Source of the DNA: a virus
Lineage: Duplodnaviria > Caudoviricetes
Virus record (IMG/VR): IMGVR_UViG_3300035497_000412
Length of the DNA stretch: 64,000 nt
Direction: 5' to 3' (one strand)
Positions 15,601-38,552 of this stretch are shown here, one piece after another. Positions within the stretch are counted from its first letter, which is position 1. The number at the start of each line of letters is the position of its first letter. Below the pieces are notes generated by a model. That model made no database searches. It saw nothing but the letters and a program-made list of their open reading frames with translations, and was not told where the DNA came from. Both the position numbers and the translations under genes were made by a program.

Positions 15601-18600
15601 ATTAACCAACTAGTCCATGTCTCCAGAATAATCTGGGAACATATCTTTAATAGCCTTAGAAAATTCCTCATCAGTAAGACCGGTTAATTGACTAGCGTTG
15701 CTTGCTACTATGCTAGATATATATTCTTTTGACCATCCAGAAGGAAGAGAATTAGTACCGATAGCAGTAGATAAAGACCTCTAAAGATTAGTAGTATCTG
15801 ATTTTACATCGGCGACATCAGCATTAGCATTTCCCATTAATGAAGCATATTCCGCAACAGAAGCTGCCTTTTCAGCATTTTCTATCGCAGCATCAATATC
15901 AGACTAGTCAATAGTCAATGCTCCATCTTCATTTCTATAAACATATTTAGCTAATTCAGGATACTCCTAAATAAGAGCTAATACCTCACTATTAACATCC
16001 TATAAAGCTTCCTTCCATTCTTGAGTGCCCTTAGTACAAGCATTAAGAGTTTCAACAACAGAAGTATAATCATCAAAAGCACTTGACAAAGATTCTGCCG
16101 CAGATTTAGCATCGTCATAGGCGTCAGATAAGTCACTTGCAGTTTCGGCTGCTTTCTTAGCGGCATCCGCATCAGCGTTACAAGCTTTTGTTAATGCGTA
16201 TATAGCAACAATTAAGCCACCAGCGACCAAAATAGCGACTATTCCCCCCATAGCAGTTTTCCAAGTTATCTGCGCTTTTATGTTCTTCCAAACTGTCGCA
16301 GTATTAACTTTAATGGCCGTAGTCATTCCGGCTTCAGCAAGTTCAGCTTGTTTCTCTGCTGTAATTTGTGCTCCAGTAGCTAATACATCACCAGTTTTGA
16401 CATCAATCAACTCTTTTGTGCTCTAAACCTCTTTGTCTGTCAATAAAAGATCAGCTATTTTAGCAACTAAACCTTCTTCACTAGTAGAAGTTACAAATTT
16501 ATAGACATTTCCCAAGTTTGTAAATCCAGTAGTTAGCATGGGAATAGTCATACCAAGAGACATCATAATCTATGTTGTCTTTTCCCAGGTGCTCAAATCA
16601 TCATTAGTAAATGTGTCTTTAATTGAAGACAAGGCATTTAAACCCATTCCAAAAGAAGAAATACTTTGAACAGCTCCCATGGCAGCTGATCCAATAGACT
16701 AATAAACAAGTGTCTATCCTGATATTTTTGCAGCTGCTTCTTTTGCCTAATCCCCAGCCCTTTCAGAAGCATCTCCTGATAATTCTTGTGCTTGTGCATT
16801 TTGTCGAGCTTTATCAATTAATTCGCCTATTTTTGAACTCGCAATTTCTGTTCCACCAGCAAGCGTCTTAATAGCATTATTCTAAGCCTCTGCTGAAGTT
16901 GGTACCTTCTAAAAGGCTTCTATTAATTTATTCTCCGCTTCAGCCAATTGTTCTGGCGTACTACTACTATCTTGTAAAATAGTCTCATAATTATTTAAAG
17001 CAGTAGTAAAATCATCTGTTGACAATCCTGCTTCATTCATTTCATTGGCTAACTTAGCAATAGCTTTTGCTTGATTCTCAGTAGTTTCAGTTTTATCTCC
17101 AATGGAAGCTTGTAATTTTTTAATAGCCGAACTTGTTTGTACAACTTTTTCTGCCGCATCTGATAACCTTCTCTAGAATTTTCCAAACTCTTCAGTAGGA
17201 CCTTTCGTAGCAACTGCTAAATCTTGCAAAGCATCTTGAAGAATCACTGTCGCCGCTATGATATCCTACTGAGTAGAGTTAGTGTCTCTTAATGTATCTA
17301 AATATAACCTCTATGCTTCTTTGGCTGTATTCACTTTCTCGTTATTTTCTTCTAAAATTCCAGAAGCATCCTGAATTAGTGCATTTGCAGTCTTTATAAC
17401 ATCAGTTTTATCATAACTAATAATCGAGTCGCTCTATTCGGTTAAGTTATGCTAAGCCTACACACCATATTTCTGACTCGCCTACTAAGCAGATGCTACA
17501 TAAGCCTATTCAGTTGATTGTGCCATTTTAGCAGCCTATACTGCGGCTTCAGCATAATTATTTGCAATTTTCATCGCTTCTTCTGCTGCAGCTCGTTGCT
17601 CTTTAGTCATACTTTTTGTAGCAGCATCTAAATGTTTCTATAAAGTATAAACAGATTCAAGCTATTGCCTTAAACCTTTGACTTGAGTTGAATCAGCTAT
17701 ATCCTTAGTCATTACCATAGCTAAAGAATAAGCTTCATCTTTAACTTCTTGTAATTCTCTCTATGTTACACCAGAAAAAGTTCTAAAATTATTTAAAGCA
17801 GAATTAATACCTGCCGCCATTTGGTCTTTAAACACAGAAGTTGCAATAAGACCGGCCGCAGCTAATACTCCCTTTAATCCTCCAAGAGAATTAATTAAAG
17901 AAGAAATTCCATCTAAAACTTTAGATATTGTATCATCTACGCCAATAAAGAAATCTTCATCAATTAAACTAGAATAAATTGCTTCAGCAGAAGCAGTAAC
18001 TCTATCTCTGGCAGCTTCCCAAGATTCAGCATAAATATCAGCTTGCTCTTGTAATGAACCGGTGGAACCTTCTGCAGTTGCTAAATTCGTCTAAAATGTA
18101 TCCCAATTTTCCATAAGGGAAATTAGTTGCGTATACTATCTAACCATTTACCCCTTTTCATTTCTAAAAAGGACAGACTATATCTTCTTCTCAAAAAGAG
18201 AAGTCTCCCATTTCGCTCTGGTTAAAGAGCTACGTCTTTCGACTAGTCGTTGAACCTTCTTCAAAAAATTTTAAAGCTTGGCTGCGGATTGTCCATATAT
18301 CTTTAATCTTTTTACCGTACCTTCTGCATTACCAGTTGCCATTAATCAAGTTATTAATTTGGTAATTAAAGCTTTAGGAGTTCCCCGCAATTAGAGAGAT
18401 TTTAAGCGAGCATTAGTTTCAGTTTACCCGCTACGTTTTCAGCTAAGGCGACTTGCTAGTCTTTTGATAAAGTAGACCATTTTGAACCCATTTCATCTAA
18501 AATGGCATCCATTTTTTTCAATTCGCCATTCTAATCTTTAATATTAATTCCGACTTTTTCAAGAGCCTAAGAGTAAGTACCAAGAGTAGTCCCATCGTCT

Positions 18601-21284
18601 AACGTCTCACCCAACTCTAAGTCTTGAATACGTGCAAATAAAGTTTTAACTTAAACATTCTAATAGGTGCGCAACGCCTACTACGTTCTCTAACGAACTG
18701 CTTATACTTTCGTATAAGAATAGACCATATCTTAACCTATGTGGCATAATTAGGTAAAAATTATTTCTTCCGCCATCAGCTTGCGGTTTTACTCCTCTTT
18801 ACGAGGATGGTCGTTGAACTTAAAAAGGTAATATGTCTAAATTAAGAAATTTTCCTTTACGATAAATTAATTCGTAAAGAGGTATATTATATTTTTTACA
18901 ATATTTTCTTTTTCTTTCATCTCTTTCTTGGATTATCTCCAAAGAATTGTGAAAGATTGCTCTTTGTTCAAAGTGTTGTTCTCCTTGAACTTCAACAAAA
19001 CATATTAAATTATTATTGCTATCATAAACTCCAAAATCAAATCTCTACCGTCCTAACTATTCAACTTTAACCTGTTCTTTAAAAGCAATGTTTCTCTCAG
19101 TCAAATAATTAGCTATATAGGTTTCTCCTTTAGATTTCCATCTATCACATTTTGGACAACCTCTAGAAGCCATTAAACTAATCTAGTCAGTTTTAAAAAT
19201 TAAACCGCATTTTAAACATTTGTATGTATTCTTTTCTAACTGCCCATTGTAAGTCAATAGCTAAATTGTATTATAGAACTCAGCATCAATTCTTTCTTGG
19301 ACTTCAGATAATGATAGCATATTTGCTTGTTTAGAGGTTTCACAATATTTACAAGCAAAAGGACTCTATAGACAAGCCTAAATATTTCTTTTAATATCAT
19401 TTCCACAATTTTTATGATAAATTATAACATTGTCTTTATCAATTTTCTTAATTAGATCAAAATCTTCATTATCTTTATATATTTTTTCTAATTTCTAGTA
19501 TTTAGTAAGCCCTTCTTCTTTACAGCATTTATAATTCTTCAAAAAATTATTTGCTGATTTTTTATAATGTTCTTTCCCACAATAACAACATTTTAAACGT
19601 GCTGGATTTGTAATAGCAGAATATTCTAATATTTCTACCTTTTGTTCTGGAAAAGAATTATAAAATCTTTTTAAAAATTCTTCTTTATCAACTCGTTTAG
19701 ACATTTTTCTTTCTCCTTTATTAAGTGCTGATTGTCCATTCTTGATTAGTTAGGTCTATGCCAAACCATATAATCATCCATTTACTTATTTCTACTTTCG
19801 TTCTTAGTTTAATTATAGAAAGAATTTATATTAAACTAAGCAAAATGGCTTTAGGAGTTTCCAGCTTTTAAATTTTTTTATGCCCTTAACTCAAGGCATT
19901 ACCAACTGTATCTGCGCTCTGCCGTGTTTCTGCGACTACAGTAGCCAAAGCAGAAGTCGCATACTCGTAACTTAAACCTACTGTTTGAGCAACTGCCGCG
20001 TATTTTTCAAGACCTTCTGCAATTTCCGCAGAGCTAGAAGCCGTACTAGCGCCTAATGCTGTAATAACATCAGCATAGTATTCTAGCGATTTAGAACCAT
20101 CCTCGAAGTTGTTCCAAATTGCAGTCATCTGCTCTGAAACGGTTTCAGCACTTTCGCCCGTCACATTAGCTAATTTAATAGTCGTTTCAGTACGCTTAGT
20201 GACGTCTTCTCCTTCCAACTTTACATTCTACTTGGCTCGCTACTTCCAAGCACGTTCTCTTATGAACTGCCATCAGCCTTTCGGCAATGGAATAGACTAT
20301 ATCTTACCTAATTGAGTCTCCCTATAACTCTAGGTATTCCCTTTTCGACTCGCTTGAGCCTACTCCCCTTTGACTGGGGATAGTCGTTGAACCTTCTTCA
20401 TTTTTTTTGAAGCTTGGCTGCGGATTGTCCAATCTTTTACCTTTTTACTCTACCCATGGGAATTAGCCGTGGCCATTAAAGTTTGTCTTTAATTTAGTAG
20501 TAAAAGCTCTAAGGATTTCCCCGCAATTAAAGAATTTTTAGGGCAATAATTCATTTTCCTGACAAAATTACATAAAAAAAATTATAAATACTATCCAAGT
20601 TTTTATAATTCTATCTTCACGAAAAAATATTTATTTTCCCTATTGGAAATAAATTAGGGAAGCATCTGTATAATTTGTGGTAGTTGTACTTAACGCTTTA
20701 GCTGCTTTATTTGCCTATTCTGCAAACTCAGCCATCTAATCCGTATTATATCCAGTAACAATACGAATATTATTTAAGGACTCATTTAAATCCTAAGCAT
20801 ATCCATAAGCAGAAGACAAAGAAGACATAAACCCGTGAATGATAGTAGAAGAAATTTGCCATTTTGCAGTATTCTTCAGAGTAACTGCAAAATCAGATAA
20901 TAATGCACTAGTACGTTTAAGAGGAGCTTCTGCTGTAGCAATAGACTGAGCGACCTTTAAAAATGCCTAATCTCCTTCTACTCCAAGAGCCGATAACTTA
21001 TTGGAATACTCTTGTAAAGAAGTCCCAGACTACTTCAAGGACGCATTAAAAGCTGTTAAATCTAGTTTTCCTGTTGAACTATTAAATGCCTATGATAATG
21101 ACTAACTTAATTGCGCCGCTGCAAGTTGCGCTTCTTGTATTTCCTTGGTTATAGGCAATTGCTAACCAGACACTGTTGACCCAGAACTTAATTTATTTAA
21201 ATCATTTACTAAGGTCTAAATTTGCGTTTTAGCCGCACTAGTGTCTGCAGTAAACGCTAGATTAACATTTAACTGTGTACTCAT
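9664..21284 (-). CDS. tape measure protein, ~3225 aa, 4 exons (21284-20637, 20218-19894, 18649-18426, 18144-9664), code 15
   Basis: Ala-rich helical composition. Spliced junctions restore TMP-like motifs DASLIYFQQG|LEG, TVGNA|FKTLFAR, VAG|VRQY. Exon total 9678 nt is divisible by 3. S/G-rich linker and SH3-like GWV segment near the C-terminus. Confidence 0.9.
18145..18425 (-). ncRNA. group I intron TMP-3 (281 nt, no ORF)
   Basis: Core elements AAUUGCGGGGAA, AAUCCGCAGC, GUUCAACGACUA, AAGAUAUAGUC. P1 GCGGGU/GCUCGC, P10 CUAAU/GUUAG, terminal G 18145. Confidence 0.92.
18650..19893 (-). mobile_element. group I intron TMP-2 (1244 nt) with homing endonuclease ORF
   Basis: P1 AUGCCU/GGGCAU. Covarying P7 GACCA/UGGUC. 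ORF inserted between Q and R (P6). Terminal G 18650. Confidence 0.92.
18820..19704 (-). CDS. intron-encoded Zn-finger + Vsr/DUF559-like PD-(D/E)xK endonuclease, 294 aa (code 15)
   Basis: Several CxxC pairs, then KSKGE..RFDFGVYD..VEVQGEQHF. Multiple internal TAG, TAA at 18820, AAAGGAG RBS. Confidence 0.8.
20219..20636 (-). ncRNA. group I intron TMP-1 (418 nt, long AT-rich P1 loop, atypical 5' splice site)
   Basis: Core P/Q/R/S elements at 20290-20530. IGS GCCCUA pairs with exon UAGGG. 3' end AGAAUGUAAAG matches sister introns. Confidence 0.85.
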
Positions 21285-21324
21285 TTACCTACTCCTTTCT
21301 CTCCTTTTATCAAATAAAATAAAA

Positions 21325-21362
21325 AATCGGGCACAAGAAGAATAATCTCTCGTGCCCGATTA
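21325..21362 (-). terminator. intrinsic terminator
   Basis: ATCGGGCAC..GTGCCCGAT hairpin with T tract on the minus strand. Confidence 0.65.
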
Positions 21363-21395
21363 CTCCTATATTTTTTAAAAATATAGTTCATTTAA

Positions 21396-21920
21396 TTATC
21401 CCAACTTGGTTAAAACATCTTTTAGCAAACTCATATTATCAGGGTCTGCTAACTTTTGCTGGATTGAACCAGCATCTAAATCAAGATTGCTATAATCTCT
21501 AGATATTGAATCTAAAATCCCCAGCGCAGAGTTACGATACTTATAGATTTCTGTAATAGAGTCATGCACCGCCGCAATTAGATCACCATATTCATCTCTA
21601 GGGATCACCGCAATAATCTGATTATAAAGTCCAGTCCCAATTAGCAGATCATATAGCTTACAAGGGTCTTCTAACTGCTTCTCTGTAAAGGAAATATTAG
21701 TATAAAAATCTACTACCTCCAAAGCAGTAAAAATATCAATCTTTACTGGATTTATAAAATTGTTATCATCCTGAGACTTATTTACTACGTTAGAAATCAG
21801 CATAAGCTTATCATTAACGGGAAGGTAACATTTTACTTCGATATTCTAATCATTCCAGGTAATAGTCTCAACTTTTTGGTTCTTTGTTAAACCAAGCTTG
21901 GTAAATGAAACTTTAGACAT
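21396..21920 (-). CDS. 174-aa probable tail assembly chaperone (code 15)
   Basis: MSKVSFTKLGL start, one internal TAG, immediately upstream of TMP. TTGACA..TATAAT promoter at ~21953-21981. Confidence 0.6.
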
Positions 21921-21977
21921 AAGTTTCCTCCTTTTACTCTTTTCTTATGGGTATTATAACATAATTTTTTTAGTTTG

Positions 21978-23045
21978 TCAATTAAAATTTGATTTAGAAA
22001 TACTAATACGCATAAATGCCTATCCAGGACTATTTAACATTTTATCAATAATTTCTGAAAATATTTTTGCAGTACTTTTGACATATATACTTCCGTGAGG
22101 ATCATTATATATTAAATATTTCGCTTCACCATAAGACTATCCATTGTATTTAATACCAGTACCCATTAATTCATATAAATACCGTATATGATAAAAATGA
22201 GAAGCTACTGAAATATCTCCTTTATCAATCATATTTAAACCGGCAAAGAAAGCACTTTGTGCAGTTTTATCATCATATCCTAAATCTAATAAGACACCAA
22301 CAATAGAACGATAAATATTACTACTTCCTAAAGATAATGTTGTATGCCCAGTCTACTGTACGAATTCTTTTAATTCCTAGTCCCATGTCATACTATCATA
22401 GTTTTTAGCTGTAAATGTGGCGTCCTTTAATAAATTATAAATCTAAAGCATTTCTGGAGTTGGATTTGATTTTATATCAATTTCATATCCTTTTACATCG
22501 ATCTTACCATCGATTTCTGGCAAATAATATGCTAACATTTTTTTTCCTTCTAAGGTAGTAATGTATCGCTATGATTTAGTTCCAATTTTTTTTAACATTT
22601 TTTGTATATTTTTATCTGATAATGTTTTCTCAGTAAAATCTATAGAAGTTCCTAACTAACCACCAATATTAACTTGTTTTTCATCAAATTCAAATAATTC
22701 ATCAGCAGACATTGATTCATAAACAGCATGAATTACATCAGTTAATTCTTTTTCAAAAACCGTTCCTCCACGACGCTAAAAAAGGTTATTTATATTATAA
22801 TTAGAATTTCTTGATATTCCATAAGACTAAATATTTTCTAAAATTATGCGTATAGTTTCATTTCCTATAGGATCGTTAGAATTATAAACAGCTGCAACAG
22901 ATTTTAATTCCTAAAAAAAATTCTATAATAATTGTGCATTAACATCATCAATATTAGCTTTAAAAGAATATTTATTGACGATACTCTAATGTACCATATT
23001 CATAAAAGATGTAACTTTCATACGATTATTACCGTTATAATACAT
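21978..23045 (-). CDS. 355-aa AT-rich hypothetical protein (code 15, missed by ORF track)
   Basis: ATG 23045 with AAGGAGG RBS, many in-frame TAG, TGA 21978, length divisible by 3. Confidence 0.6.
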
Positions 23046-23079
23046 TTATTTTCCTCCTTTTTCTCAAACTAAAAAAAAT

Positions 23080-23116
23080 AAAAGGGGAGAGATATTTTCT
23101 ATCTCTCCCCTTTCTT
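23080..23116 (-). terminator. intrinsic terminator after major tail gene
   Basis: AAAGGGGAGAGAT..ATCTCTCCCCTTT hairpin. Confidence 0.75.
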
Positions 23117-23123
23117 AAATTAA

Positions 23124-24439
23124 TTACTCAGCAGGACGCTCAGTGGTCATAGTATCGGGATCAACCACAACACCATAATCATCCACAACATCCATAGACT
23201 TAGTTCTCTGACGCTTCAGCTCACTAGAAGCCTCGCCGCCCACGATCTGCAGGGCCGCAAGAACCTTCTTAGTCTTATTGAAACGAGTATAATCAGGGAA
23301 CGCATCCATAGTAAAGGTAAATGTCAATATCTTCCAGTAAGCTCGCTACTGCTTACTGCGTTCTCTTATGAACTGCTTATAGTTTCCTATAATGTTGAGA
23401 CTATATCTTCATCTTATTTAAATAAATAAGAGATTCCCATTTCCACTCACTTGAGTGTACTTCCTTACGGAATAGTCGTTGAACTTTCTTCTAAAAATAA
23501 GTTTTTAGAAGCTTAGCTGCTGATTGCCCAATCTTTATAATTTTCAAACATTCACGCTTGTCATTACTGACTACGTTGTAGTTTATAAAGCTCTAAGGGT
23601 TTTCCAGCAATTAAGGAATTAAACTTCTCGGCTTGTCATCAAGCCGCCAAGCGCATTTGTCCACTTGGATCTCCACTAGGAGCCATAGTAAATGTGAAGT
23701 TAGACTGAATCTTGCAGTTAGGAATCACAAACTCAGCAGGCCAGTCAACACCGTTAGTATCACGGAATGTAGTAGAAGCTTCCAGATAATAGTTACCACC
23801 GAACTTATCAGCAGTAATATCAATCTGCTGGACGCCAGAAGCCTTCTCAGTATAGTAGTCCACCAGAACCACACAGCCATCATAGAACACACTCAGATCA
23901 TCAGTAGCTTTCAGAGTAATGGTCTTATTCTCAACATCCACAGTCTCAGGAATATAAGGTTCAGAACAAACTTCACCATTCTGCATCATCATCACATAGA
24001 TGTAGTCCTCACCATCAGCATCATAAGGGACATTATCAAGGTCAATAGTCACCTCAGACACCAGATAGTCGTCATCACCATAAGAGCCACTAGAGGTCAC
24101 ATGAACATCAGCAGTCTGCTCAATAGTGTGAACTTTAATAGTATTCTCTTCATCAGGCTCAATCAGACCAGCGCCAGACAGCAGCATGAAACCAGCAGGA
24201 GAAATCAGAGCATCCTCCATGGTAAAGGTGATTGTACGCTCACCGTCCCAAGCGATCAGACGGGGGTTACCATTACCACCCTGGGCATACACTGTAGTAG
24301 CAGCACCTTCTAGACTAGAAGTCTTTAAAGTATCAAAATAAATGACAGGCTCGTTCTTATAAAAAATCTTATTGCCGACTTTTTGCGCTGCCTTAGCTTT
24401 CAGCACGACATCGCATACATTACGAACACCATACTTCAT
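23124..24439 (-). CDS. major tail (tube) protein, 325 aa, 2 exons (24439-23663, 23324-23124)
   Basis: Spliced junction GDPS|TFTFTMDAF is in frame. Beta-rich tube-like sequence, high-expression codon bias, position in tail module. Confidence 0.8.
23325..23662 (-). ncRNA. group I intron in major tail gene (338 nt)
   Basis: P1 CCAAGU/GCUUGG, P10 AAAUG/CAUUU, GUUCAACGACUA and AAGAUAUAGUC core, terminal G 23325. Confidence 0.93.
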
Positions 24440-24467
24440 AGTATATATTTTCCTCCTTATTTGTTAA

Positions 24468-25196
24468 TTAATGAATATTTTTCATCCAATTGTCCGGCTT
24501 ATCGTCAGGTTTACCACCAGCCAAACGAGATCGAATATCAATATCCCAATTAATATATAGCGAGTATCTTTCAACTAAATCATATAATTGGTAAAGAGTT
24601 AGATTTAAACAATCTTCCAGAGACATAGAATTTAATCCAACTGTCAAAGTTGATAGATACTAACTAAGTGAGCTTGCGGCCGAGCTTCCTTTTTCTGCGG
24701 CAACTCTTTGCTAACCCCGCATAATTTTCTAAGCTATTCTAGCAGCTTCCTCATTTGCAGGATTAAAACCTTCCTATCCCATAGGTCCAGAGTTAAAACA
24801 GAATATTTCTTTTAATGCACCCTAAAATATATCAAAATTAGTATCATCCAACATAACTGATTCACTATTCTCTTGGCTTAACATAATAGCCCTTGGCGTA
24901 ACTAACATTTTATATTCAGGACATACTAATTTAAAGACTTCCTCTACCGCATTCTTTTTATCTCTTGTCTCTTTCTATGACATTATCGTCATTAATATCT
25001 AAAAATTGGTTGCTTCTGATAGAACTATTTCGTCCTGAGTAAACATAGTTTTATTAACACATAATGTTTGCGCTCCTACGAAAAAAGTCTATTCTCCAAT
25101 TAAAGCAATTTCTTTTATGCGAGGCTAATGAAGAACTATTTTGCATTCTGGAACTGGAATATTAGTTCCAGCCATTAAGGCTAATCGAATATCCAT
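24468..25196 (-). CDS. 242-aa neck/tail-region protein (code 15, missed by ORF track)
   Basis: MDIRLALMAGTNIP start overlapping the upstream TAA, internal TAGs, TAA 24468. Confidence 0.65.
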
Positions 25197-25786
25197 TATT
25201 TTTTGGAATTAAATAAATCATTAAAATCAGCCAAATATTGTTCTTCATTCTGCGGGTTCGGCTAACCCTTTTTATCCTCCTCGCCATGAACTGCGTTATA
25301 CAACAAACACAAACCAGCAAATTCATCAGTTAAAACCATTTGAGTCATTCCAAGAAATTTTAAAGTTCCGATTCCTGTTAAACGCTTATCGTTAAACATT
25401 GTATCAATTTCAGCGGCAATCTTGTAAGGCCGCAATTCAAAATCTCTCATTGGCCACTAATCAAAATGGCAAATAATGTCAAACTCAACAACGTTATCTC
25501 TAAATTCTGGGTTTTTAGCATTTGGAGTAAAATTATCAAAATTTACAATGATATAATTTAATACATTTTTATCAACAACCAACTTAGGAACATTTTTAAT
25601 GTTTTTATTAATAAGACTCAAACTTTGATCTTCTGTCAAATTTGGCTTATCTAAACAATCCTTAGTTGTATAATAAAGCATCTTTTTTAGCCTGTTATTT
25701 TTAAGCATCTTATCAACAATGATACTCATATCTTTTTCAATTGATAAAAAACTAGATTCAGGCCATTGATATTTTTCAATCTTCAC
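25196..25786 (-). CDS. 196-aa probable tail-terminator/neck protein (code 15)
   Basis: Pieces 25457..25786 and 25262..25450 are in frame across TAG. Function inferred from position. Confidence 0.6.
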
Positions 25787-25805
25787 AGCTAATCTCCTTT
25801 AACTC

Positions 25806-26864: not shown

Positions 26865-27162
26865 GAGAAATCTCCTAAAGCAAACTAATAGATTCAAAAA
26901 CTGTTTTCCTGTATAGTTCAAAACTTATGTCAGGTTTTATTTGTAAGCCTTCAAGCTTACTAAGCATCTATAAAAATTGCGGAGTATCAATAAAAATTTC
27001 ATTCAACCCCGCAATTTCAATAATAACTGTATTTAATTGTCGAACCCAATCTTCTTGATGTTCACGCATTGGAATTAATTTCCAAAGTTGGTTTGTTAAG
27101 CGCTTCACATCTTTATCTAAAATTTCTATCGGAATATCAAAATTATATTTAGTCAATAGCAC
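26848..27162 (-). CDS. 104-aa hypothetical neck-region protein (code 15)
   Basis: ORF 26968..27162 continues through TAG to TGA 26848. Confidence 0.6.
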
Positions 27163-27730: not shown

Positions 27731-27754
27731 CTGTTCTCGCCCCCATTTCAAAAA

Positions 27755-28291: not shown

Positions 28292-28324
28292 TTAAAAAAT
28301 CTCCTTTATCTCTTAAAAAAAATA

Positions 28325-28358
28325 ACGGGGAGAAGAGAAGCTATTTCTCTTCTCCCCT
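28325..28358 (-). terminator. intrinsic terminator after capsid gene
   Basis: GGGGAGAAGAGAA..TTCTCTTCTCCCC hairpin. Confidence 0.75.
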
Positions 28359-28384
28359 AACAAAAGCCTTATTTAAAAATAAGA

Positions 28385-29494
28385 TTAAGCCTTCACACTT
28401 CCGTCGAGACGACCATCATAGGTAGTGACCTTACCAGTCACACCATCCAGATGCCAAGTGTCAAGATCACCCATCAGGGCGGTATCAACATAAGCACAAA
28501 TGTTGTTGCTCAACATACAAACGACGCCAACCTTCTTATAAACTTGCATCTCACGAGAACGGTCAGCATTAGTAACTTCATCAACTAAAGTGCCACCCTC
28601 GAAAGCAATCTTCACAGGCTTATTATCAGCGCCAGTAGGAATAATCCAAGCATAGCCGGGGTCAATGACCTTGCGACTGTTGGTTTCATCCTCGAAGCCC
28701 TGCTCAAGAATAATGACCTTATTACCCTTGTAGCTAGCAAGACGGCCAGTATTCCACAGCTCAGTCTTCATGGCCTCAGTATAGCGCCAAGCTTCCTGAG
28801 GAATCATCTGCACAGCAAACTCATAAGTGCAATAAATAGTAGGAGTGCCATAAGCAGCAGCAATAGTAATCAGCTTATCAAAAGCAGCTTCATCAAAGCC
28901 AGTGGCAGCAACACGGTTGGCAGGGGGCAGTTGGTTGATAGAAGCTTTCAAGGCAGCGCCAACTTCCTTATAAATCAGCTCATCCATACCCTCCATAATA
29001 ATCTGAGTGACCTCAGCGAAGTCCACACGACCATCAAGGAACTCTTCAAAACCAATCTGAGCGGCGCCACCAATAGCAGAAGTACGGACCTCAAAGGCTT
29101 CCTCGCCCTTGCTCAGCTTAAAAACTTCATAACGACCATTCAGACCAACGCGAGTCACAAACTGCTTAGCACGCTTGTTAGAACCCAGCTTGCGGCGGAA
29201 CAGAGGTTTATCGCCCTGAGCAAAAGTCTTAACCTCAGCAAATTGATCATACTGCTCAACAACCTTCTTGGGCAGCACATCATCCAGAACTTCCTCAATA
29301 ATAGAGAAAATCAGATTCTTATTCTCGCGATACAGAGAAAAAGTACCAGCCAGCTCATTAAACTCCTGGCGCAGAGTCTCATTCAGAGCCTCATAACTAA
29401 GATTCTGACCATTAAAGCTATAAGCAACAGGAGCAGAAGGCTTGGCTTTAGCACACTGCTTTGCTAAAGCAACTAAATTAGATCTATCCAGCAT
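28385..29494 (-). CDS. major capsid protein
   Basis: 369 aa, strongest codon bias in the window, after protease/scaffold and decoration genes, followed by a terminator. Confidence 0.8.
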   Translation of the reverse strand: MLDRSNLVALAKQCAKAKPSAPVAYSFNGQNLSYEALNETLRQEFNELAGTFSLYRENKNLIFSIIEEVLDDVLPKKVVEQYDQFAEVKTFAQGDKPLFRRKLGSNKRAKQFVTRVGLNGRYEVFKLSKGEEAFEVRTSAIGGAAQIGFEEFLDGRVDFAEVTQIIMEGMDELIYKEVGAALKASINQLPPANRVAATGFDEAAFDKLITIAAAYGTPTIYCTYEFAVQMIPQEAWRYTEAMKTELWNTGRLASYKGNKVIILEQGFEDETNSRKVIDPGYAWIIPTGADNKPVKIAFEGGTLVDEVTNADRSREMQVYKKVGVVCMLSNNICAYVDTALMGDLDTWHLDGVTGKVTTYDGRLDGSVKA

Positions 29495-29512
29495 TATTCT
29501 TCTCTCCTTTCA

Positions 29513-30295
29513 TTAAGCAATACGCATAATCTTAACGCCGCGCTGATGGTCAGGCATGGTATAAACCTTAACGACCTGCCAAGTCATCTTATCGTCCTCA
29601 CCAGGCTCAAGAATACCCTTCTCGCCAACCTTCAGAGTATCACCAACAGAGAGACTATCGGCATTAATAGTGTTAGTAGTGAAAATATCGCCCACATTGG
29701 TCTTAAACACGCGGGGCACCATGGTAGTGCCAGCAGGCATTCTCTGGGGCTTGTAAGGACCTTCAATATGGAAAGGATCCTCATTGTAATGGATCTCATA
29801 CATATCAGGACCAGCAGTCACATCATCATACGCATAAGTCTTCTTGGAATCGCCATCACCAATAGAAATCTCAGAATTACCATCAGCGTCAACACCATTG
29901 TAATAACGAGACTGTCTATCCCAAGCAGTATCAAAATCAGCGGTAGGATTACCATCCTTATCCAGACCAAATCCAAAAGGACTATACAGACGCGCCTGAT
30001 AGTCATCCTTCTTCAGAGCAAACTCGCAATCCATCTGCTCTTCACGATACAGTTTAATCTCATTGTAAACGAGCATCCACTCGCCCTTACCAGTAAAGTT
30101 AACTAAGCCAGAAGCATAATCATACTTCACGAACTGGCCTTGCTCCAGAACATCAATATCTGCGGCAGCGGGCAGCTGGGCATAAATCTGAGCAGTTCTT
30201 TGAGCAGACAGATGGTTAGGCTCAACCTGGCCATAGCCATACTCAACATAGCTAGCCTGACTAGTGATATGCTTCTTTAAAAAATCACTAAGCAT
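29513..30295 (-). CDS. head decoration/cement-like protein
   Basis: 260 aa, YGQVEPNHLS start, between scaffold and MCP. Confidence 0.6.
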   Translation of the reverse strand: MLSDFLKKHITSQASYVEYGYGQVEPNHLSAQRTAQIYAQLPAAADIDVLEQGQFVKYDYASGLVNFTGKGEWMLVYNEIKLYREEQMDCEFALKKDDYQARLYSPFGFGLDKDGNPTADFDTAWDRQSRYYNGVDADGNSEISIGDGDSKKTYAYDDVTAGPDMYEIHYNEDPFHIEGPYKPQRMPAGTTMVPRVFKTNVGDIFTTNTINADSLSVGDTLKVGEKGILEPGEDDKMTWQVVKVYTMPDHQRGVKIMRIA

Positions 30296-30319
30296 TTATA
30301 TTTTCCTCCTTAATTATTT

Positions 30320-31900
30320 TTAGTCTAAGTTTTTCGCAACAGATAAAGCTCTCTTAACCCAAGCGGGCATTGCAGAGTCATCATCATCATTCAGGTTAAA
30401 AGTAACAGGAGCTTTTTGCTCAGTCTCTTCGTCAAGACTAAAATTAACCTTATTGCGAACACAGATAATAGAGAGTTTAGCCTCAATATCATCTAAAGAA
30501 TAAGTATCAATATTTGAAACGACATCTTCTTTATCTTCATCGGAAAGCATATAGAAGCTACTAATCATATCTTCCTTTTGCTTGCGCTCGACCTGTTTTT
30601 TAAACTCGGTCAAAGGAGCAATCTAGCTCTCAAGATTCTCTTTTTCAATCTTTAAGGCACTATACTCCTTCTGTAAAGTGGTATACTGTGAACACAGCTC
30701 GACATACTCAGGAATCTCTTCCAGTGAATATTTCTTCTCTTTACAAGTGCATTCATCTAAAGGTTTGCCGCATTGGGGGCAAACTTCTTCTTCATCTGCT
30801 TTCTCTTCGGTTTGTTCATCGCCATCGTTTTCAGTATCTTTACTGCTCTCTGATTTATCTTCAGTTTTCTTCTTATCATCTTCATCAGCTTTGTCCTAAT
30901 TTTTTTTATTAGCATAATAAGCTTCAACATCAGCTTCAGCAAACTGAGGAGCTTCCTCGTTTTTGGAATAGATGCTAGTAATTTCGATAAGAGTATCTTC
31001 TGGAACGAATTCTTCATTCTCACTAAGAGCAAAATTTAAACGATAATATTTGTCTTCGGCATTTTGGTGCAGGACCGCAAACTTCTGTCCTTCTTCTTCA
31101 CAAACGCTATCAATACTATAAGTATCAGCAGGTAGCTTAGTATCAATGTAATTATCAATACTATTCCAAATATTATCACCAACAGAAACAGAATACTTTG
31201 CTAACACTTTCATTCCTCCTTCTTTTAGAATTTCTTTCAGCTCTTTCATCATTGAATAAAGTTCCTACTTAAAACCTTCATCAAGAGAAAATTGAACTGT
31301 CGGAGCAGTAATGTTAGCCCCTTCAAAGCAAGGCTCACACTCTTCTCCTAAGATACAAAGTTTTGAGATAATTGCTTCATTAATAATAAAAAACTAAGGT
31401 TCTTCTTTATTACCGTTTGACCAATCAGCCTATAAAGTTTTTTCATCTAATTCCATAGATTGATTGTTGCCATGTTCAATAATACGCTGGCATTCTGGAT
31501 ATTGCGACGTCCATAGCCATCCCTCAGTCATTAAATATTCATGTTCAACTTCATTATCATCTAAAAAAGTCTAAAACCAAGTTTTCGCATTTAAATCAAC
31601 AAAACCATAAGGCTTTGTAGTATCCTTAACCTCGAATTCGCCATTAGAGATATCAATAATACGATTATGTTCTTCAAAATCTTCTTTTGCTTCATTATAA
31701 AAACCAACAATCGCAGCACCTCTAAGACTTGGCGCCATTTGTTTAGCAACTTCTTTAGTGATAACACTACCATTTCGATTTGGCTCATCGCCCACATAAC
31801 ATACCTTAATGGTACATTTAGAAATTAAGGGGCTGTAATTAGAAGGAGCCACATCAATTAACTCTACTCCAGAAACTGGAATACTAGTATGTTTTGCCAT
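30320..31900 (-). CDS. prohead protease-scaffold fusion, 526 aa (code 15)
   Basis: Three ORF pieces in one frame. PNRNGS, GWLW and QSMEL protease-like motifs, then an acidic/coiled-coil C-terminal region. Confidence 0.75.
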
Positions 31901-31913
31901 TAATTATACCCCC

Positions 31914-33521
31914 TTAGCTCATGCTTTCTTTATTAGCAATTGTTTTTTCACTTTTTTCATCATCCGGCTTTTCAGGTCGTCCACCGCTTTCTGAGGTAGT
32001 TTCAGAAGAAGATTTAGACTGACCTAAAATGTCCTCACTACTCAAAGTAGAACTCATTAAAGGCGGAATCATAATTTCGCTCAAATTCAGAATCTCATTT
32101 TCAAAAACAGCTGTATTTAAGATAAAGCTCTGAGAATGCCCAAGCGCAATTTGCGGCAGCATCTTAGAGCAACCAGATTGAGCTTGCTCTTTATACATCT
32201 TAGAAACTTCTTTATAGTTATATTGCGTGGTTTCCAGCATATGGAAATAAAAACTATACTTTTTACTAACTGACTTTCTTTTTAAAGCCCTGTTATAAAA
32301 AGCACCTATTTGCAATAGTAAATCTCTCATCATAGATTCATCATTTAAAATTGATTTCTCCAATGATAAATTACCATCTGTATTAAATAGATTCTAAGAA
32401 ATACCAAAAGAGTTAAATGCAGCTCTTTCAATTCGCTCTAAGTCATCAGTGCTTGTCGCAGTATTACTATCTGATAAATCGATAGAACTAACATCAGTAA
32501 AAGTAGTTAAAACATCAGTACCGACTGCGTGTTTAAGCATTTCGACAGCATTATTATGAATATCTCTAGCTTCATCAACATCAAAAATTAAATCACCATT
32601 TTTATCTAATGGAAGTGTTTGAACTACAACTTTTAAAAGCTTCTGCATTTGCTTGCGACGGTCCAACTCTTGCGCTTCATCCAAATCTAATAAAGAAGGA
32701 ATTGCTGTAACAAAAGGAGGCGTATCATTACCATTTAAATTAAATTTTATTGAATACTCAGGGTCTAATAAATACCAACCAGAAGTATCAGTATAACGCC
32801 ATTGACCTGGTTCAGTCCTTGTAATATCCTAAGTCAACTTTCCTTGCTTATAAAGCATATACCCTTTCTTAAATTCATTCGGAAAAAGATTCAGAACTTT
32901 CATACGATAATTAATATCACTAAAAGTATCAAAAAACTTCATGTTAAATTCTACTGCTGGATTATCTCCAACATTGTACCTAGAGCGGCAATAGTTAGCT
33001 GGTAATTGCTGGATAACTATTCTATCTTTTGAATCAATTAAGTATCCATAATAACATCCATTTTTAACGACCTCTAGTGCAATTTCTCCGCAAGTTTTTT
33101 TGATATTAGAATTATCTAAATAATTAAGAACCGAAGAAAAATCTTTTAAAATCTTTTCTGTTTTAGCTGTACTATCAAATACATTTGGCTCTACATACCA
33201 ATCATATCTATATAAGAATCCAGTATAATTACACACTCGCTTATAAATACCATTAACATTATAATAATAATTTGAAATAGCTCTAAGTTCAGCAACATCA
33301 TTCCTAGCGAGACAATTTAAAATATAGTTTTTATCTCCAAACTCTCGCCTTGGCCCAGCCTTTTTATAGCTTCCAAGATTTAACACCGCATCATCAAGAG
33401 TTTTAACGCCGACTTTAACACTCTTGTATTCAGTTCCTTCCGCAGAAGAATACTGTCTAAAAGAATTCATGTCAAAACCTTTTTCATGAATTTCTTCAGA
33501 CCTTGTTTTATTTTCGTCCAA
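31914..33521 (-). CDS. portal protein, ~535 aa (code 15)
   Basis: Three ORF pieces in frame across TAG. C-terminal GGRPEK motif, position between terL and protease. Confidence 0.8.
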
Positions 33522-33536
33522 GCACTTTCACCCCCT

Positions 33537-33896
33537 TTACCAATCATAAGCTCGTTTCATTATATAATCATATGATATTAAATTTTCCTCATGATAAGGG
33601 ATTTCTATCAATCTAATATCATGCAGGGCGCAAAATCTTCGCTTTTTATTGTCATTAAATTGTTGTTGATAAAGGCCCTTTTTACCACCAAATTTTGGAC
33701 TAGCTTCATAATGCTATCTTCCTTGATACTCAATTAAAAAATCAAGATTTCCATCATCATCGAAAACAGCAAAATCAAAGCGTAAGGGGCGACCAGATGG
33801 ACTATTCAAACCTGGAAAAATATATTCCTCTTTAAAATTTATATTATTACTTTCAAGTATTTCATGAATTTTAATTTCTCCTCTTGAACTTTTCAT
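33537..33896 (-). CDS. 119-aa free-standing Vsr/DUF559-like nuclease (code 15)
   Basis: SRGE..RFDFAVFD..IEYQGR(TAG=Q)HY..LIEIPY, TAA 33537. Confidence 0.75.
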
Positions 33897-33974
33897 CTTC
33901 GATAAAACCTCCTTACTTATTTATCTAATATTTTTAAAAAATAAGTAAGAAGGATTTTATCTTTTCGTCCACTT

Positions 33975-36900
33975 TTAATTGAAAAAAGCCCATTCTTTTG
34001 CATTAAATTTCTTATGCTTCTTCTTACTATCTTCTTCTTGTTTTATATAATACAATCCATAACACAATGAGGAAAATTTATCTTTTCCGATTCGTTTATT
34101 AGATCGCTTTAAAATAATATTAATACCTTCTGCTTCTTCTTTAAGGTTTAACAACTCTTCTTTTAAAATATCTGTTAAAACAAAAGGCATCAAATAAGAA
34201 TCTCTTTGTTCTGGAGTCATATTCTGACCCAATCTAGTACCCATTAAGCTATTTTTAGCCAATCGTGCTTCGCGCAAGAATTTAATCTTTCCACTTTCAA
34301 TCTAACTTTTAATAGTAGAAAAAGCTTCAGTGTTAACAGGAGCATTTGCTTTCATAATATAAATAGCTTCATCTTCTGTATCATTAGTTCTGAATCTCTT
34401 ATATTCTTGCGTGGCATCATCTTGCGTTCCACCATAAACTCCAAATGGAGGATAATATTCACCACCTCGGTCTTGTGATTTAACCATGTAATCAATAAGA
34501 CCAATGCCCAGGCCGTTTCCGTCTATCACAACTCGTTTTGCCTTATATTGGTAAAATAATTTTTTAATCGTAATAGCCTAATCCTCCATGTGCATATCTT
34601 CATACACAAAGATATTCACTAAATTCTTTATTGAAGAGCCTTGCGGCTATGGTGTTACTTTCAATGCACAAATAACTGTTTGGTCTCCTTTGCGGCCTAC
34701 GTCTACAGATAGTATATAATAAGCCTATGAAGAAGACCTCCCTGAATATTCATATTCAGGCTTTTGTAAAATTCTATTTCTATCAAACTTTTCACCATCA
34801 AAGAAAGCATCCTCAACTGTTCCAGTCCATTTACTTTCCATTTTTCCTTGCGATATTTCGCTAATATCTCTCTGGCTTTCACCAGAAGGTGAGATCATAT
34901 CATCTACATAACGCCACACGAAACCTTTATATGTTTTAATTTTACCACGACAACATTCACCAATATGCGCATGGCTTTTAAGACCGAGCGCACGAGTAGC
35001 AGTTCCAACAGATGGATAAGTTGTAATATACTTTCCATTTAAATCATATTGATTTACCGCTTTAGCTCTTCCATTGTTTTTATAATTCTTAACTTCACCC
35101 AACTCTGAAGAATAAGACCAATAAAAGTTACCGCTTAAAGCTTTAACATCTTTATTTAACTCTTGTAAAATAATCGAATAATTTACTTTAGTAGCTGCGG
35201 AAGCATCGGCCGCAGTCAAATATTCAGCAACTAATTGTTTATCTTTATTAAAGCAAAAAACGTGATTATATTTTCTTAATTCATTTTCTAATGCGTCTTC
35301 TGAAGTAGCCCATTCAAGATTATCTACACAATTATTCAATTTGTTGCCATCAATATGATTAACTTGGTCCTCTTTATCATCTGTCTTTTCAATAAAAGCT
35401 TCTGCTACTAGTCTATGGGCGTAACATCTTTTTTTCTTTCCAGAAGGTAAAGTCAAATTATAAGAAAAATAACCATTTCTTTCATTTACCTGCCCTTTTA
35501 GATATTTGTTAGTGTTTGAATTAAAACATTTTCCGTCTTGTGTGATATAATATGAGGTACTGATATTATCAATAATAATATTTTTCATAATAACAACCTT
35601 TCGTTATTTTTGTAGTATTGCGCTGCTTAACGCTTTGTTAAGTCTTGATCGTTGAACCTTCTCCTTGCGGAGCTTGGCTGCTGATTGTCCAATCCAGTTT
35701 ATTTTTAAAACATTCGTGCGGATAACTGCACTGTAGTTAAACTGGCTCTAAGGAGTTCCCAGCAATTCACAATATTTAAAGAGTACAAAAGTCTATACTC
35801 TCGTTCAAAGGATGCTTCATTAAACGTTGTATCTTTCTTTAATCCCAGAATGAATGATTTAGATTGGAGGCCAGTTACTACTGGTCATTTTTTTTTGATT
35901 TAATGGACTATATCATCATTAACAAATTTCCACTTATAATTATTGCATTTTTTTTGTTTACTTAAACATACAGCACTGATACCTTTTCTATTAGAATTGG
36001 TCTATCTGGCCGCATCAGAAACGCTATCAAATATTTTAATTATTTCATCTTGTTCATTCAACTAAGCAACTCTTTTTTTTCTACCTCTATCTTCTGGAAT
36101 AAAATCTTCTTCCCATTTCCAAATAAAACCTCCGGAAGTTTTCCTTGTCCCATTAGCAACCTCTCGTATTTTAGAAGCTCCTGTAGCTCTTACAGCATCA
36201 GTTAAGCTCTAAAAAGTTTGCAAGTATTCTCCTTGTAGATTATATTGCTTTACTGGTCTTAATATGTGAGCATGGTTTAATCCATTTCCCCATGCGTGTT
36301 GATTATTTTCTGAAGAAGTATTCCATTCTAAATTTTCTAAACGATTATTTTCTTTATCCCCATCTTTATGATTTACGGTTAAATTTTCCATATTTTGAAC
36401 TGGAATAAAATTTTCAGCCACTAATCTATGTCCAGTTATATAGATAGGATTACCATTTAAATATAAATTAAATTCTATATAACCATTCTATTTCTAATTT
36501 CCTTTTATTAATTCCTTGGTAGAGTAGTTTCTTACCTATCCATCATCTGAAATTTCATAATTTAATATTTGATCTTTATAATTAATTCTTTTCCACATAA
36601 ATTTTTACAACTCCTTTCTAAAGTATATAAAAATTATTCTGGAACATGGAATGGAAGTTGTCCATTTTTTTTTGTTAATGCGAAGCGCTTCAGCCAGTGA
36701 TAAAATCTGGCTTACAGGATTACACTCATCATCCTTAGTCTCTACACTTTCTTTTACTCATCATAAAAGCTTAGCACGGGATAAAGTTATCTCTCTTCCC
36801 CCGTTAGCCCAGTTGGCTTGGACACCGCTTTTTCTTGCGTTCACTTCGTTTTAGGCGCACACCACTCTATGCGCCATGTGCCTCCCATAATATAAGCTTC

Positions 36901-38552
36901 ATCTGGTTTAACTATCATTTGAGTTAAAGTTTGAATTAATTTATCATAACTATAAGTATTTTTATAGCCTGCGGTAGTTCCTTTTATTCCACACAGCTCG
37001 CTATTTCTATGTGCGTTCTCTTATGAACTGCTATATATTCCTATATAGAGTAGACTATATCTTCACCTTCAACTTTACTTGTTAAGGGCCTCCCGCTTCG
37101 ACTCGCTTGAGTCTACGTCATTCGACTAGTCGTTGAACCTTCTCCTTGCGGAGCTTGGCTGCTGATTGTCCGTTCTGGACTTCCCAGCAATTCAAGAGGT
37201 TTGCTTTTGCTAATTTCTTAACAATGATACTAATTAAATTAATATAAATTTGACTTTGATTTAATGTTTCAGATTCTTGTGTTGTACCATCCATGCACTA
37301 ACGAGACACGTTCATTAGCAATTATATTGGACTATATCATCAACTATATAAAAATAGCTGTCACGCGCTTCGATCGGTGATAAAATCCGATCTACAAGAT
37401 TACACTCATCATCTTTAGTCTCTACACTTTCTTCTATTCAACATAGAAGCTTAGCACGGGATTCTCTTTTGAAGTTCCCCGTTAGCCCAATTAACTTGGA
37501 CACCCCTTTATCACGGGTTCACGCAATTTTCTTTAGTGATTCACACCACTAAGCCCCCTAATGTCGAGGGATAATAATTTGCTAGAGCATATCTTGGTCA
37601 ACACCAACGCATTCTTCTATAACTCCTGCGTGTTTGCGCAAGCCACGAGAACTCTCTCTAGCTGCAACGTTTTCAATATCTGAACCATTTTTAAGAATAA
37701 TTTTACACTTATCTTTACCCATTTGGGTCTAACCTCGACGCCAGTCTATTTCTCGTTTAAACGCTGGTATCTTAGCACAAATATCATTAACTTTCTCTTG
37801 CAAGATTTGAGAACTTTGTTCTTTTCCTCCAGCAGTAGTAAACTAATGAGACCCTGGATATAAAATTCCTCTAATTAATAAAATCATAACTGAAAGGAAA
37901 GATTTTGAATCTTTATATTCTAATAAGTTCGCAACGCTTATTACGTTCTCCAATGAACTGCTTATATTTTCATATAAGAATAGACTATATCACGCTTTAT
38001 TATGTTAATAAAGCCCTCCTTTTTCGATTTAAGGGGTTCTCACCCGCCGCATTAACTTCGGCCCTACTCCTATTGCTTCTATTTTTATTCCGAGGAAGCT
38101 TTCTCAGGATAGTCGTTGAAGTTTATAAATAAATCATTTATATTACCTGCGGATTCCCATATTAAAGTAACTTAGGGTTCCCGCATTTTAAGAGGTTTGT
38201 CCACAGAGATCATATGAAGCTCTCTGATTTGGCGCAATTCAATTTACGCTCTCGGATATACAGCATAAACATATTTATATCTCATGCCTATTCTTAAAAA
38301 TACCCTCTAATAAAAAAATAAATTAAAGGTTATTTTTATTTCTTTTCCGTCATGATTCTTATAATAAATGCCATCTTCTTTTTCATAAGTTGGCTTGCCA
38401 CCAGTCTACATAAAATCTACGAATAAATCAGGATATTCTCTCCAAAAGGCAAAGTATTGCCGCAAGACAGGCTTAATTGGGAGGATGCGTTCTTCGGAAA
38501 TGCCAATCTTCTTTTTATTGTTATTAATTAATAATAAATCTTCTAACGCCAT
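33975..38552 (-). CDS. terL: terminase large subunit, 597 aa, 6 exons (38552-38246, 37910-37567, 37318-37242, 36979-36869, 35885-35795, 34838-33975), code 15
   Basis: Spliced product has Walker-A-like PRAYSKS, Walker-B GVIEE, motif-C YITTA, REYESKW, and nuclease SVDVG, IDGNGLG, KDKFS. Exon total 1794 nt. Confidence 0.92.
34725..35588 (-). CDS. intron HNH/NUMOD1-type endonuclease fused in frame to terL exon 6 (287 aa in code 11; 537 aa to 33975 in code 15)
   Basis: HRLVAEAF..VNHIDGNKLNN..NLEW plus NUMOD1-like repeats; reads ..SQGKM|ESKWTG into the exon. Confidence 0.85.
   Translation of the reverse strand: MKNIIIDNISTSYYITQDGKCFNSNTNKYLKGQVNERNGYFSYNLTLPSGKKKRCYAHRLVAEAFIEKTDDKEDQVNHIDGNKLNNCVDNLEWATSEDALENELRKYNHVFCFNKDKQLVAEYLTAADASAATKVNYSIILQELNKDVKALSGNFYWSYSSELGEVKNYKNNGRAKAVNQYDLNGKYITTYPSVGTATRALGLKSHAHIGECCRGKIKTYKGFVWRYVDDMISPSGESQRDISEISQGKMESKWTGTVEDAFFDGEKFDRNRILQKPEYEYSGRSSS
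34839..35794 (-). mobile_element. group I intron terL-5 (956 nt) with HNH ORF lacking its own stop
   Basis: P1 GAGUAU/GUACUC, P10 ACUUUU/GAAAGU, covarying P7 GAUCA/UGAUC, terminal G 34839. Confidence 0.92.
35886..36868 (-). mobile_element. group I intron terL-4 (983 nt) with HNH ORF in P8
   Basis: P1 GGCGCAU/GUGCGCC, P10 UGGU/ACCA, AUCCCGUGCUAAGC, GUAGAGACUA and GAUAUAGUC core. Confidence 0.92.
35900..36598 (-). CDS. intron-encoded NUMOD4-HNH-NUMOD1-type homing endonuclease, 232 aa (code 15)
   Basis: MWKRI..YEISDDGQV..HRLVAENF..VNHKDGDKENNRLENLEWNTSSENNQHA, several TAG. The C-terminus overlaps the intron S element. Confidence 0.85.
36980..37241 (-). ncRNA. group I intron terL-3 (262 nt)
   Basis: AAUUGCUGGGAA, AAUCAGCAGC, GUUCAACGACUA, AAGAUAUAGUC core; junction restores YI/TTAG. 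Confidence 0.9.
37319..37566 (-). ncRNA. group I intron terL-2 (248 nt)
   Basis: P1 CCCU/GGGG, P10 CAUUAG/CUAAUG, same core type as terL-4. Confidence 0.92.
37911..38245 (-). ncRNA. group I intron terL-1 (335 nt)
   Basis: P1 GCGU/GCGC, P10 UGAAU/AUUCA, UUCAACGACUA and GAUAUAGUC core; interrupts the Walker-A-like motif. Confidence 0.92.

Follow-up and report, generated by a model that had tools for sequence, protein, structure and literature searches.

We analysed a 64,000-nt stretch of DNA (the window) from the IMG/VR virus record IMGVR_UViG_3300035497_000412 (Duplodnaviria; Caudoviricetes), in which the terminase gene terL, a gene for a probable tail tube protein and the tape measure gene (TMP) all lie on the minus strand and are interrupted by group I introns. 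The long frames of this region are open only when TAG is read as an amino acid. Together the three genes comprise 12 exons and nine group I introns, the outer intron bases being 38245 and 18145, and all intron, tRNA and gene counts given here refer to the window. A preliminary description of the same DNA had placed nine introns between these limits, five in terL, three in the tape measure gene and one in the tube gene, and had noted terL exons of 77, 91 and 111 nt; our own coordinates agree with it exactly, and the same exon lengths were obtained. Introns are numbered 5′ to 3′ within each gene (terL i1–i5, the single tube intron, TMP i1–i3), and every feature of the window described below is on the minus strand. 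No tRNA gene was detected in the window, although the late genes need TAG read-through.

Six exons of 307, 344, 77, 111, 91 and 864 nt make up terL, of which exon 1 (38246–38552) was located by tblastn against the intron-less terL of Geobacillus phage E3 and of a related contig (L003; loci used for comparison carry L numbers), and exons 2–5 by tblastn as well. Exon 1 ends with the residues PRA and the first base of a Tyr codon, so that i1 (37911–38245; 335 nt) falls inside the block PRA/YSKS, where the slash marks the junction in the protein. Exon 2 (37567–37910) is followed by i2 (37319–37566; 248 nt), exon 3 (37242–37318) by i3 (36980–37241; 262 nt), which is inserted at QIY/ITTAG, exon 4 (36869–36979) by i4 (35886–36868; 983 nt), and exon 5 (35795–35885) by i5 (34839–35794; 956 nt). 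Exon 6 (33975–34838, including the stop codon) encodes the nuclease domain; it is 57% identical to L003 and 74% identical to L006 and L026, and it gives a weak Terminase_6C match just under the Pfam cut-off.

The tube gene has two exons, exon 1 (23663–24439; 777 nt; phrog_2729), which aligns by tblastn to a contiguous open reading frame (ORF) of L004, and exon 2 (23124–23324; 201 nt with the stop codon), separated by an intron of 338 nt (23325–23662). The tape measure gene has four. Exon 1 (20637–21284; 648 nt) ends with YFQQG and is followed by i1 (20219–20636; 418 nt), exon 2 (19894–20218; 325 nt) by i2 (18650–19893; 1244 nt), and exon 3 (18426–18649; 224 nt) by i3 (18145–18425; 281 nt), after which exon 4 (9664–18144; 8481 nt with the stop codon) holds 65 TAG codons. 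When the exons are joined, the products are free of stops under code 15 and have 597 aa (TerL), 325 aa (tube) and 3225 aa (tape measure).

Junctions were fixed by tblastn, by the rule that a U precedes the intron and a G ends it, and by the pairing of P1 and P10. For comparison we used public phage records with an intron-less terL (Geobacillus E3, phAss-1 and contig MT836163, which is L003), a public record with intron-less tube and tape measure genes (MT835936, which is L004), and a sample of IMG/VR relatives comprising 21 terL loci and 60 tape measure loci. The spliced TerL aligns with the contiguous TerL of L006 and L026 over residues 1–597 at 75.5% identity. All five of its junction peptides (PRA/YSKSF, IIP/LMNVSRQCMDGT, QIY/ITTAGYKNTYSY, GGTWR/IPV and REY/ESKW) match the closest intron-less relative, L006, and are either identical or conservatively changed; the i2 junction IIP/LMNVSR is the same as in L006. 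At the tube junction, GDPS/TFTFTMDAFPDY is identical to the consensus sequence drawn from 26 relatives. For the tape measure gene the junction peptides are YFQQG/LEGED, GNAF/KTLFARIQD and NVAG/VRQYTQLI; the residues QQG before i1 are kept in 60/60 relatives, and the peptides at i2 and i3 are found identical or nearly so in intron-less relatives. Intron removal had previously been said to restore frame and motifs, and this holds at all nine junctions, with open frames throughout; moreover, alignment to intron-less homologs of TerL, tube and tape measure, the check suggested at the time, found the spliced products collinear with them.

Two alternative splice sites that keep the frame were considered and rejected: a 3′ site at 37313 for terL i2, since L006 reads LMNVSR, and a 5′ site at 35790 for terL i5, since L006 reads REYESKW. 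The P1 helix GAGAGUAU/GUACUCUU further argues against these sites. Inteins were also rejected, as stops occur in every reading frame of the inserts, which moreover contain ribozyme cores.

TerL is 37–57% identical to TerL of Geobacillus E3, Enterococcus H1 and L003, the last of which matches phrog_2 (E 2.8e-24); a sequence search of an intron-less TerL homolog against solved structures gave no match. The gene at 23124–24439 is assigned with moderate confidence to a tail tube protein. It lies two genes upstream of the tape measure gene, and the structural model of L054, a 77%-identical intron-less homolog, though weak (mean pLDDT 65), matches solved tail tube proteins in Foldseek (8xkn, 9jgh, YSD1 and Chi; E 3e-9 to 1e-4, TM 0.27–0.52). 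The tape measure protein is recognised by a PhageMin_Tail match (PF10145, E 1.7e-17) in exon 2, by its length of 3225 aa and by collinearity with a contiguous 2971-aa ORF of L004.

Ribozyme cores and splice-site pairing

A 24-kb segment was searched with the general Rfam group I intron model RF00028 (gathering score 50 bits), and the matches given here are on the minus strand. Matches at or above gathering were obtained for terL i3 (37031–37251; 101.9 bits, E 1e-25), TMP i3 (18154–18455; 90.8 bits), the tube intron (23376–23717; 83.5 bits), terL i1 (37961–38255; 69.6 bits) and TMP i1 (20272–20590; 67.7 bits). Weaker or partial matches lie at 35615–35777 (35.3 bits, 5′ half of the core), at 18701–18834 (29.0 bits, the 3′ part of TMP i2), at 37315–37576 (26.8 bits, terL i2) and at 34870–35117 (19.4 bits). 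The last of these is the 3′ part of terL i5, and together with the 35.3-bit match, which covers P3 to the 5′ strand of P7, it gives the two halves of that intron. The low scores of terL i5, TMP i2 and terL i2 arise because an ORF splits the core or because the family is divergent. No RF00028 match was found for terL i4, which was recognised through its 78% identity to terL i2 over 165 nt; it was missed because its endonuclease gene splits the core between the P7 strands, which are at 36745 and 35914, and the J8/7–P7 3′ strand at 35914 overlaps the last codons of that gene.

Both P7 strands are present and complementary in 9/9 introns. The pair is GACUA with UAGUC in seven, GACCA with UGGUC in TMP i2 and GAUCA with UGAUC in terL i5, so the two variants are fully compensated, in keeping with the compensatory P7 changes first pointed out in the preliminary description. 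Every intron ends with G. A P1 helix of 4–8 bp with its guide sequence was identified in all nine, the guide being 9–15 nt inside the intron in eight, and in eight a U pairs with a guide G at the 5′ splice site, TMP i1 being the exception. The P1 strands are GCGU with GCGC in terL i1, UCCCU with GGGGG in terL i2, GGCGCAU with GUGCGCC (7 bp) in terL i4, CCAAGU with GCUUGG in the tube intron, AUGCCU with GGGCAU in TMP i2 and AGCGGGU with GCUCGCU (7 bp) in TMP i3, and P1 has 8 bp in terL i5. A P10 of 4–6 bp was found in four of the nine: terL i4 (4 bp), terL i5 (6 bp), TMP i2 (4 bp) and TMP i3 (GUUAG with CUAAU). Thus inspection of RF00028 matches, P7 and P1 bears out the earlier statement that core elements and a terminal G are present in each intron.

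Covariation was examined with RNAalifold on ten introns aligned with MAFFT, half of them from the window and half from relatives. Compensatory changes occurred in 19 of 30 pairs, in P6, P7.1, P7.2 and P8. The 5′ third aligned poorly, and the outermost helix proposed by the program (columns 209–216 with 398–407) is probably spurious. In the RF00028 alignments an insert of 20–60 nt follows the 5′ strand of P7, and the two covarying hairpins found there by RNAalifold are as for P7.1 and P7.2 of subgroup IA, an indication obtained with the general model only. The intron cores are 74–85% identical to introns of Staphylococcus phages, Bacillus phages AR9 and PBS1, Lak phages and other phages. Judged by sequence similarity, the introns fall into two families: the common phage type, with seven members, and a second type that consists of terL i2 and i4.

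As a separate observation, a 3′ module beginning with CAGUUCAUAAGAGAACG or a close variant is common to five introns, at 37960, 37030, 23375, 20269 and 18700. It continues into a covarying hairpin whose loop keeps UAGCGA/UUGCG, and it ends near the terminal G. The same module recurs in introns of L022, L024 and L076.

Endonuclease genes and distribution among relatives

Three introns carry an endonuclease gene and the other six, at 248–418 nt, are too short for one and contain no ORF, which is the division reported earlier. The HNH gene of terL i4 (35900–36598; 232 aa, six TAG codons) matches Pfam HNH_3, NUMOD1 and NUMOD4 and phrog_59 (E 1.4e-36), and has GAAAGGAG upstream. The HNH ORF of terL i5 (34902–35588; ∼229 aa, no TAG) matches HNH_3, NUMOD1 and phrog_59 (E 7e-32). 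In both, HNH_3 and NUMOD1 score above the Pfam cut-offs. A Pfam I-HmuI_NUMOD-like match is below the curated cut-off. The two proteins are 32% identical to each other, and both genes are situated between the two P7 strands of their introns. The endonuclease gene of TMP i2 (18820–19704; 294 aa, seven TAG codons) lies upstream of J6/7 and encodes a zinc ribbon and a Vsr/DUF2726-like nuclease, with matches to phrog_559 (E 1e-38), phrog_9084 and phrog_7140 and weak Pfam matches to DUF723, Zn_ribbon_8 and DUF2726, the last below cut-off. All three intron genes have a Shine-Dalgarno sequence of their own. Besides these, a free-standing gene for a Vsr-like homing endonuclease (33537–33896; 119 aa, one TAG; phrog_9084, E 1.3e-28) is located between terL and the portal gene, and its product shares 35% identity with the C-terminal part of the endonuclease from TMP i2.

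The HNH frame of terL i5 has no stop codon of its own and continues through the 3′ end of the intron into exon 6 (33975–35588), so that unspliced RNA would encode a 537-aa fusion of HNH endonuclease and TerL nuclease. We set this fusion aside as a functional feature; it looks incidental, because the orthologous ORF of L022 (2355–3086) has its own stop.

Among the relatives terL is contiguous in 19 of 21, including the closest ones. In the other two, L022 and L024, terL is interrupted by three introns each, which were confirmed with Rfam and lie partly at other sites than in the window; a homolog of terL i5 occupies the same site in L022 with 67% identity over 949 nt. The 5′ part of the tape measure gene, encoding the N-terminus, is contiguous in 58 of 60 relatives, and TMP i2 and i3 recur at the same sites only in L075 and L076. 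TMP i2 is ∼80–81% identical there over its full length, and TMP i3 is 82% identical in L075. Hence the shared introns are 80–82% identical between phages, as compared with 56–74% for the flanking exons. The L076 ortholog of TMP i3 also contains an added 283-aa ORF (L076 8641–9492) whose DNA resembles the HNH genes of the window. Neither the window nor L075 has this ORF, and the same intron therefore exists with and without an endonuclease gene. The tube intron of L076 is at a different site from that of the window. The patchy distribution, the greater likeness of introns than of exons and the gain of an ORF resembling HNH genes are together the signature of homing elements and not of a conserved regulatory design. 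These loci also provide pairs for study of the homing cycle, namely the same intron with and without its endonuclease gene, and intron-bearing and intron-less terL at 75% protein identity.

In L021, positions 7539–8643 contain sequences like TMP i3, terL i3 and terL i4 (intron and HNH) just upstream of a contiguous terL, which suggests an intron in the gene preceding terL.

Probable mobility of the introns and alternative explanations

Very probably, nine mobile group I introns have colonised the late morphogenesis operon of a siphovirus that recodes TAG, is related to phAss-1 and infects gut Firmicutes, and they would be selfish passengers rather than a timing device tied to recoding. In this scheme each intron would fold into a ribozyme within the late transcript, and its internal guide sequence would pair with the end of the upstream exon to form P1. 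Free guanosine would attack after the last base of the upstream exon, the freed exon end would then attack after the terminal G of the intron, and the exons would be joined into mRNAs for the 597-aa TerL, the 325-aa tube protein and the 3225-aa tape measure protein, the first and last of which would be translated only where TAG is decoded as a sense codon. The endonucleases (two I-HmuI-like HNH and one Vsr-like) presumably cut intron-less alleles of co-infecting relatives, into which the intron is copied; the six introns lacking a gene would be stripped forms of the same elements, and the phage would tolerate all of them because they splice. Ribozyme motifs, junctions, collinearity with homologs, patchy distribution and endonuclease family membership are the observations from which we infer splicing, homing and the absence of regulation. 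Several points weigh against this explanation. Splicing is deduced from sequence, which by itself cannot prove a lack of regulation; all nine introns of the window are in late genes; terL i2 and i4 are weak or undetected with Rfam; for certain phage introns, splicing has been shown to occur late or to depend on factors in vivo (PMC11878797); and TMP i1 may splice poorly, or the base at its 5′ junction may be an assembly error.

At TMP i1 the junction reads GGA/…G/TTG, and the base before the intron (20637) is A and not U. We kept this junction because it is the only one that preserves the invariant QQG/L. Its guide, GCCCUA, is located 93 nt downstream of this site, and its pairing with UAGGG brings a guide G opposite the A; between splice site and guide there is ∼85 nt of AT-rich sequence (20545–20636), so that the P1 loop exceeds those of the other eight introns by ∼85 nt. 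A brute-force search for P1 helices with a U·G pair at the splice site returned only many short AT-rich ones, and in-frame alternatives lose QQG/L. Part of the set might thus have decayed, such that TMP i1 no longer splices properly and the contig represents a defective variant or has a consensus error at the splice site. This is consistent with the Gly codon of the 60 relatives, which is GGT in 57, GGC in three and GGA in none, with the unusually long P1 loop and with the lack of P10 pairing. However, the core scores 67.7 bits, the guide still pairs with five exon bases and occupies the place that corresponds by homology to the TMP i3 guide, and all four tape measure exons are intact over 3225 codons, so we regard decay as unlikely. 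The A may be tolerated at this site, the intron may be impaired, or the base may be an error; if real, TMP i1 is a naturally occurring example of A in place of U at a 5′ splice site. A broader artefact, in which intron-like sequences of other phages were stitched into the contig, has a negligible probability, given that all nine inserts restore the frame exactly, that the guide sequences match their own flanking exons and that the same introns occur at the same sites in independent contigs.

Splicing and recoding do coincide in two of the three genes. In-frame TAG codons number 10 in terL and 78 in the tape measure gene, which have five and three introns, respectively, and both proteins require splicing as well as TAG read-through, as was proposed at the outset; no TAG occurs in the tube gene, despite its intron, so that the proposed layering of splicing on recoding in three genes stands for terL and the tape measure gene and fails for the tube gene. 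The further proposal, that the two steps form a designed double gate which delays or licenses virion assembly, draws some support from this coincidence, from the TAG codons in two of the three intron endonuclease genes and from the discussion of GTP-dependent splicing as a possible switch (PMC11878797). Nevertheless, thirteen recoded relatives with 4–12 TAG codons in terL have no terL intron, whereas L022 and L024, with three terL introns each, have no TAG in terL, and thus introns and recoding are uncoupled. Because the introns are also sporadic among relatives, and those that are shared differ less from phage to phage than the exons around them, we did not uphold the double gate and consider it very unlikely. 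Splicing might also be a real control layer, with the output of TerL and tape measure protein set by ordered, GTP-sensitive splicing and hence the timing or yield of assembly. The micro-exons of 77, 111 and 91 nt between the homologous pairs i2/i4 and i3/i5, and the A at −1 of TMP i1, could be cited for such control, which we nonetheless hold to be highly improbable.

The positions of the terL introns bear on another proposal, that introns are kept since split motifs shield the DNA from CRISPR spacers or rival homing endonucleases. In terms of conservation over 12 residues, the insertion sites rank in the 100th (i1), 98th (i5), 88th (i3), 68th (i2) and 46th (i4) percentile. The claim that the terL insertions hit conserved ATPase motifs is thus correct in part: i1, i3 and i5 lie in strongly conserved blocks, and i2 and i4 in average regions. 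The block PRA/YSKS split by i1 would be the Walker A block and i3 precedes TTAG, although the Walker A and motif III labels rest on motif reading, because the TerL homolog matched no solved structure. Once in place, an intron abolishes the target site of its own homing endonuclease, and cognate immunity of this kind is textbook homing biology; the three conserved sites fit a shielding role. But homing endonucleases target conserved sites anyway, so that a bias towards conservation is expected without any defence benefit. Moreover, CRISPR evasion has little a priori plausibility: nine insertion points would cover only a few dozen bases, and the introns add ∼5 kb of conserved, targetable DNA. 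Taken together with the average conservation at i2 and i4, this makes retention for shielding quite unlikely.

Relation to known intron-rich phages

I-HmuI and I-HmuII, of Bacillus phages SPO1 and SP82, are HNH endonucleases encoded in a group I intron of the DNA polymerase gene, and nicking activity and marker exclusion have been shown for them. The terL introns i4 and i5 are similar in having an HNH and NUMOD endonuclease within a group I intron of an essential phage gene, and differ in the host gene. Group I introns in capsid and tail genes are also found in cluster J mycobacteriophages (PMC3706429), and a recoded intron endonuclease was noted by Borges et al.

The nearest described phage group is phAss-1 and the ‘Caudoviricetes code 15 clade’, in which late genes, those for TerL and the tape measure protein among them, use TAG as a Gln codon (PMC10607447). 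phAss-1 comes from the human gut, its host is probably a member of Clostridia, its tape measure protein has ∼3150–3200 aa, and introns are unmentioned in that report (PMC10607447). The window phage resembles it in TAG recoding, in tape measure length and in TerL, which is ∼41% identical over the C-terminal exon; in contrast to the window phage, terL and tube are contiguous in phAss-1. A search of the terL-region loci L002 and L003 with RF00028 found no intron.

In Staphylococcus phage Twort, orf142 (tail tube) has three introns, and in Bastillevirinae terL has two or three, with exon skipping; some of those terL introns carry HNH or Vsr-like (phrog_559) endonucleases, and polymerase genes have introns too (PMC11878797). 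The window shares with these phages several group I introns, here probably of phage IA type, in a single structural or packaging gene, short internal exons and similar intron-core DNA. Unlike the window phage, they keep to the standard code, no gene of theirs has more than three introns, and their splicing and exon skipping have been shown by experiment, whereas splicing in the window is predicted from the sequence. Jug phages of Bacteroides have on average 18.5 group I introns per genome and terL in 2–3 fragments, with metatranscriptome support for splicing (PMC12363816). They are likewise gut phages with many group I introns and a split terL, but they are huge, use the standard code and have introns of mostly ∼206 nt, whereas TAG recoding and three endonuclease-bearing introns of ∼1 kb are found here.

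Recoding and introns are combined in crAss-like phages of the Zeta and Delta groups, which have late-gene stop-codon recoding and up to 14 group I introns per genome, with MCP split into five fragments and a recoded PolB gene into four (PMC7886860). The window phage is like them in being a gut phage with recoded late genes and dense group I introns in core genes. It differs in that it is not one of the Crassvirales but of siphovirus type, a relative of phAss-1, Enterococcus EF1 and H1 and Geobacillus E3, in that terL is in six pieces and the tube and tape measure genes are split, and in that no inteins were seen.

Multi-intron structural genes of phages, intron-rich gut phages and the combination of recoding with introns are therefore already known, and there is no new mechanism here. 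For annotation, gene callers report more than a dozen fragments for the three genes, and the exon coordinates given above recover full-length TerL, tube and tape measure proteins, which can serve phylogeny and host prediction in the code-15 clade. The present case stands out for nine introns in 20 kb, five of them in terL, and it extends the pattern to a code-15 siphovirus clade. Five introns in one phage gene are at or above the highest number in the reports cited here, which is three for Twort and Bastille-type phages and four for the MCP gene of crAss Zeta phages.

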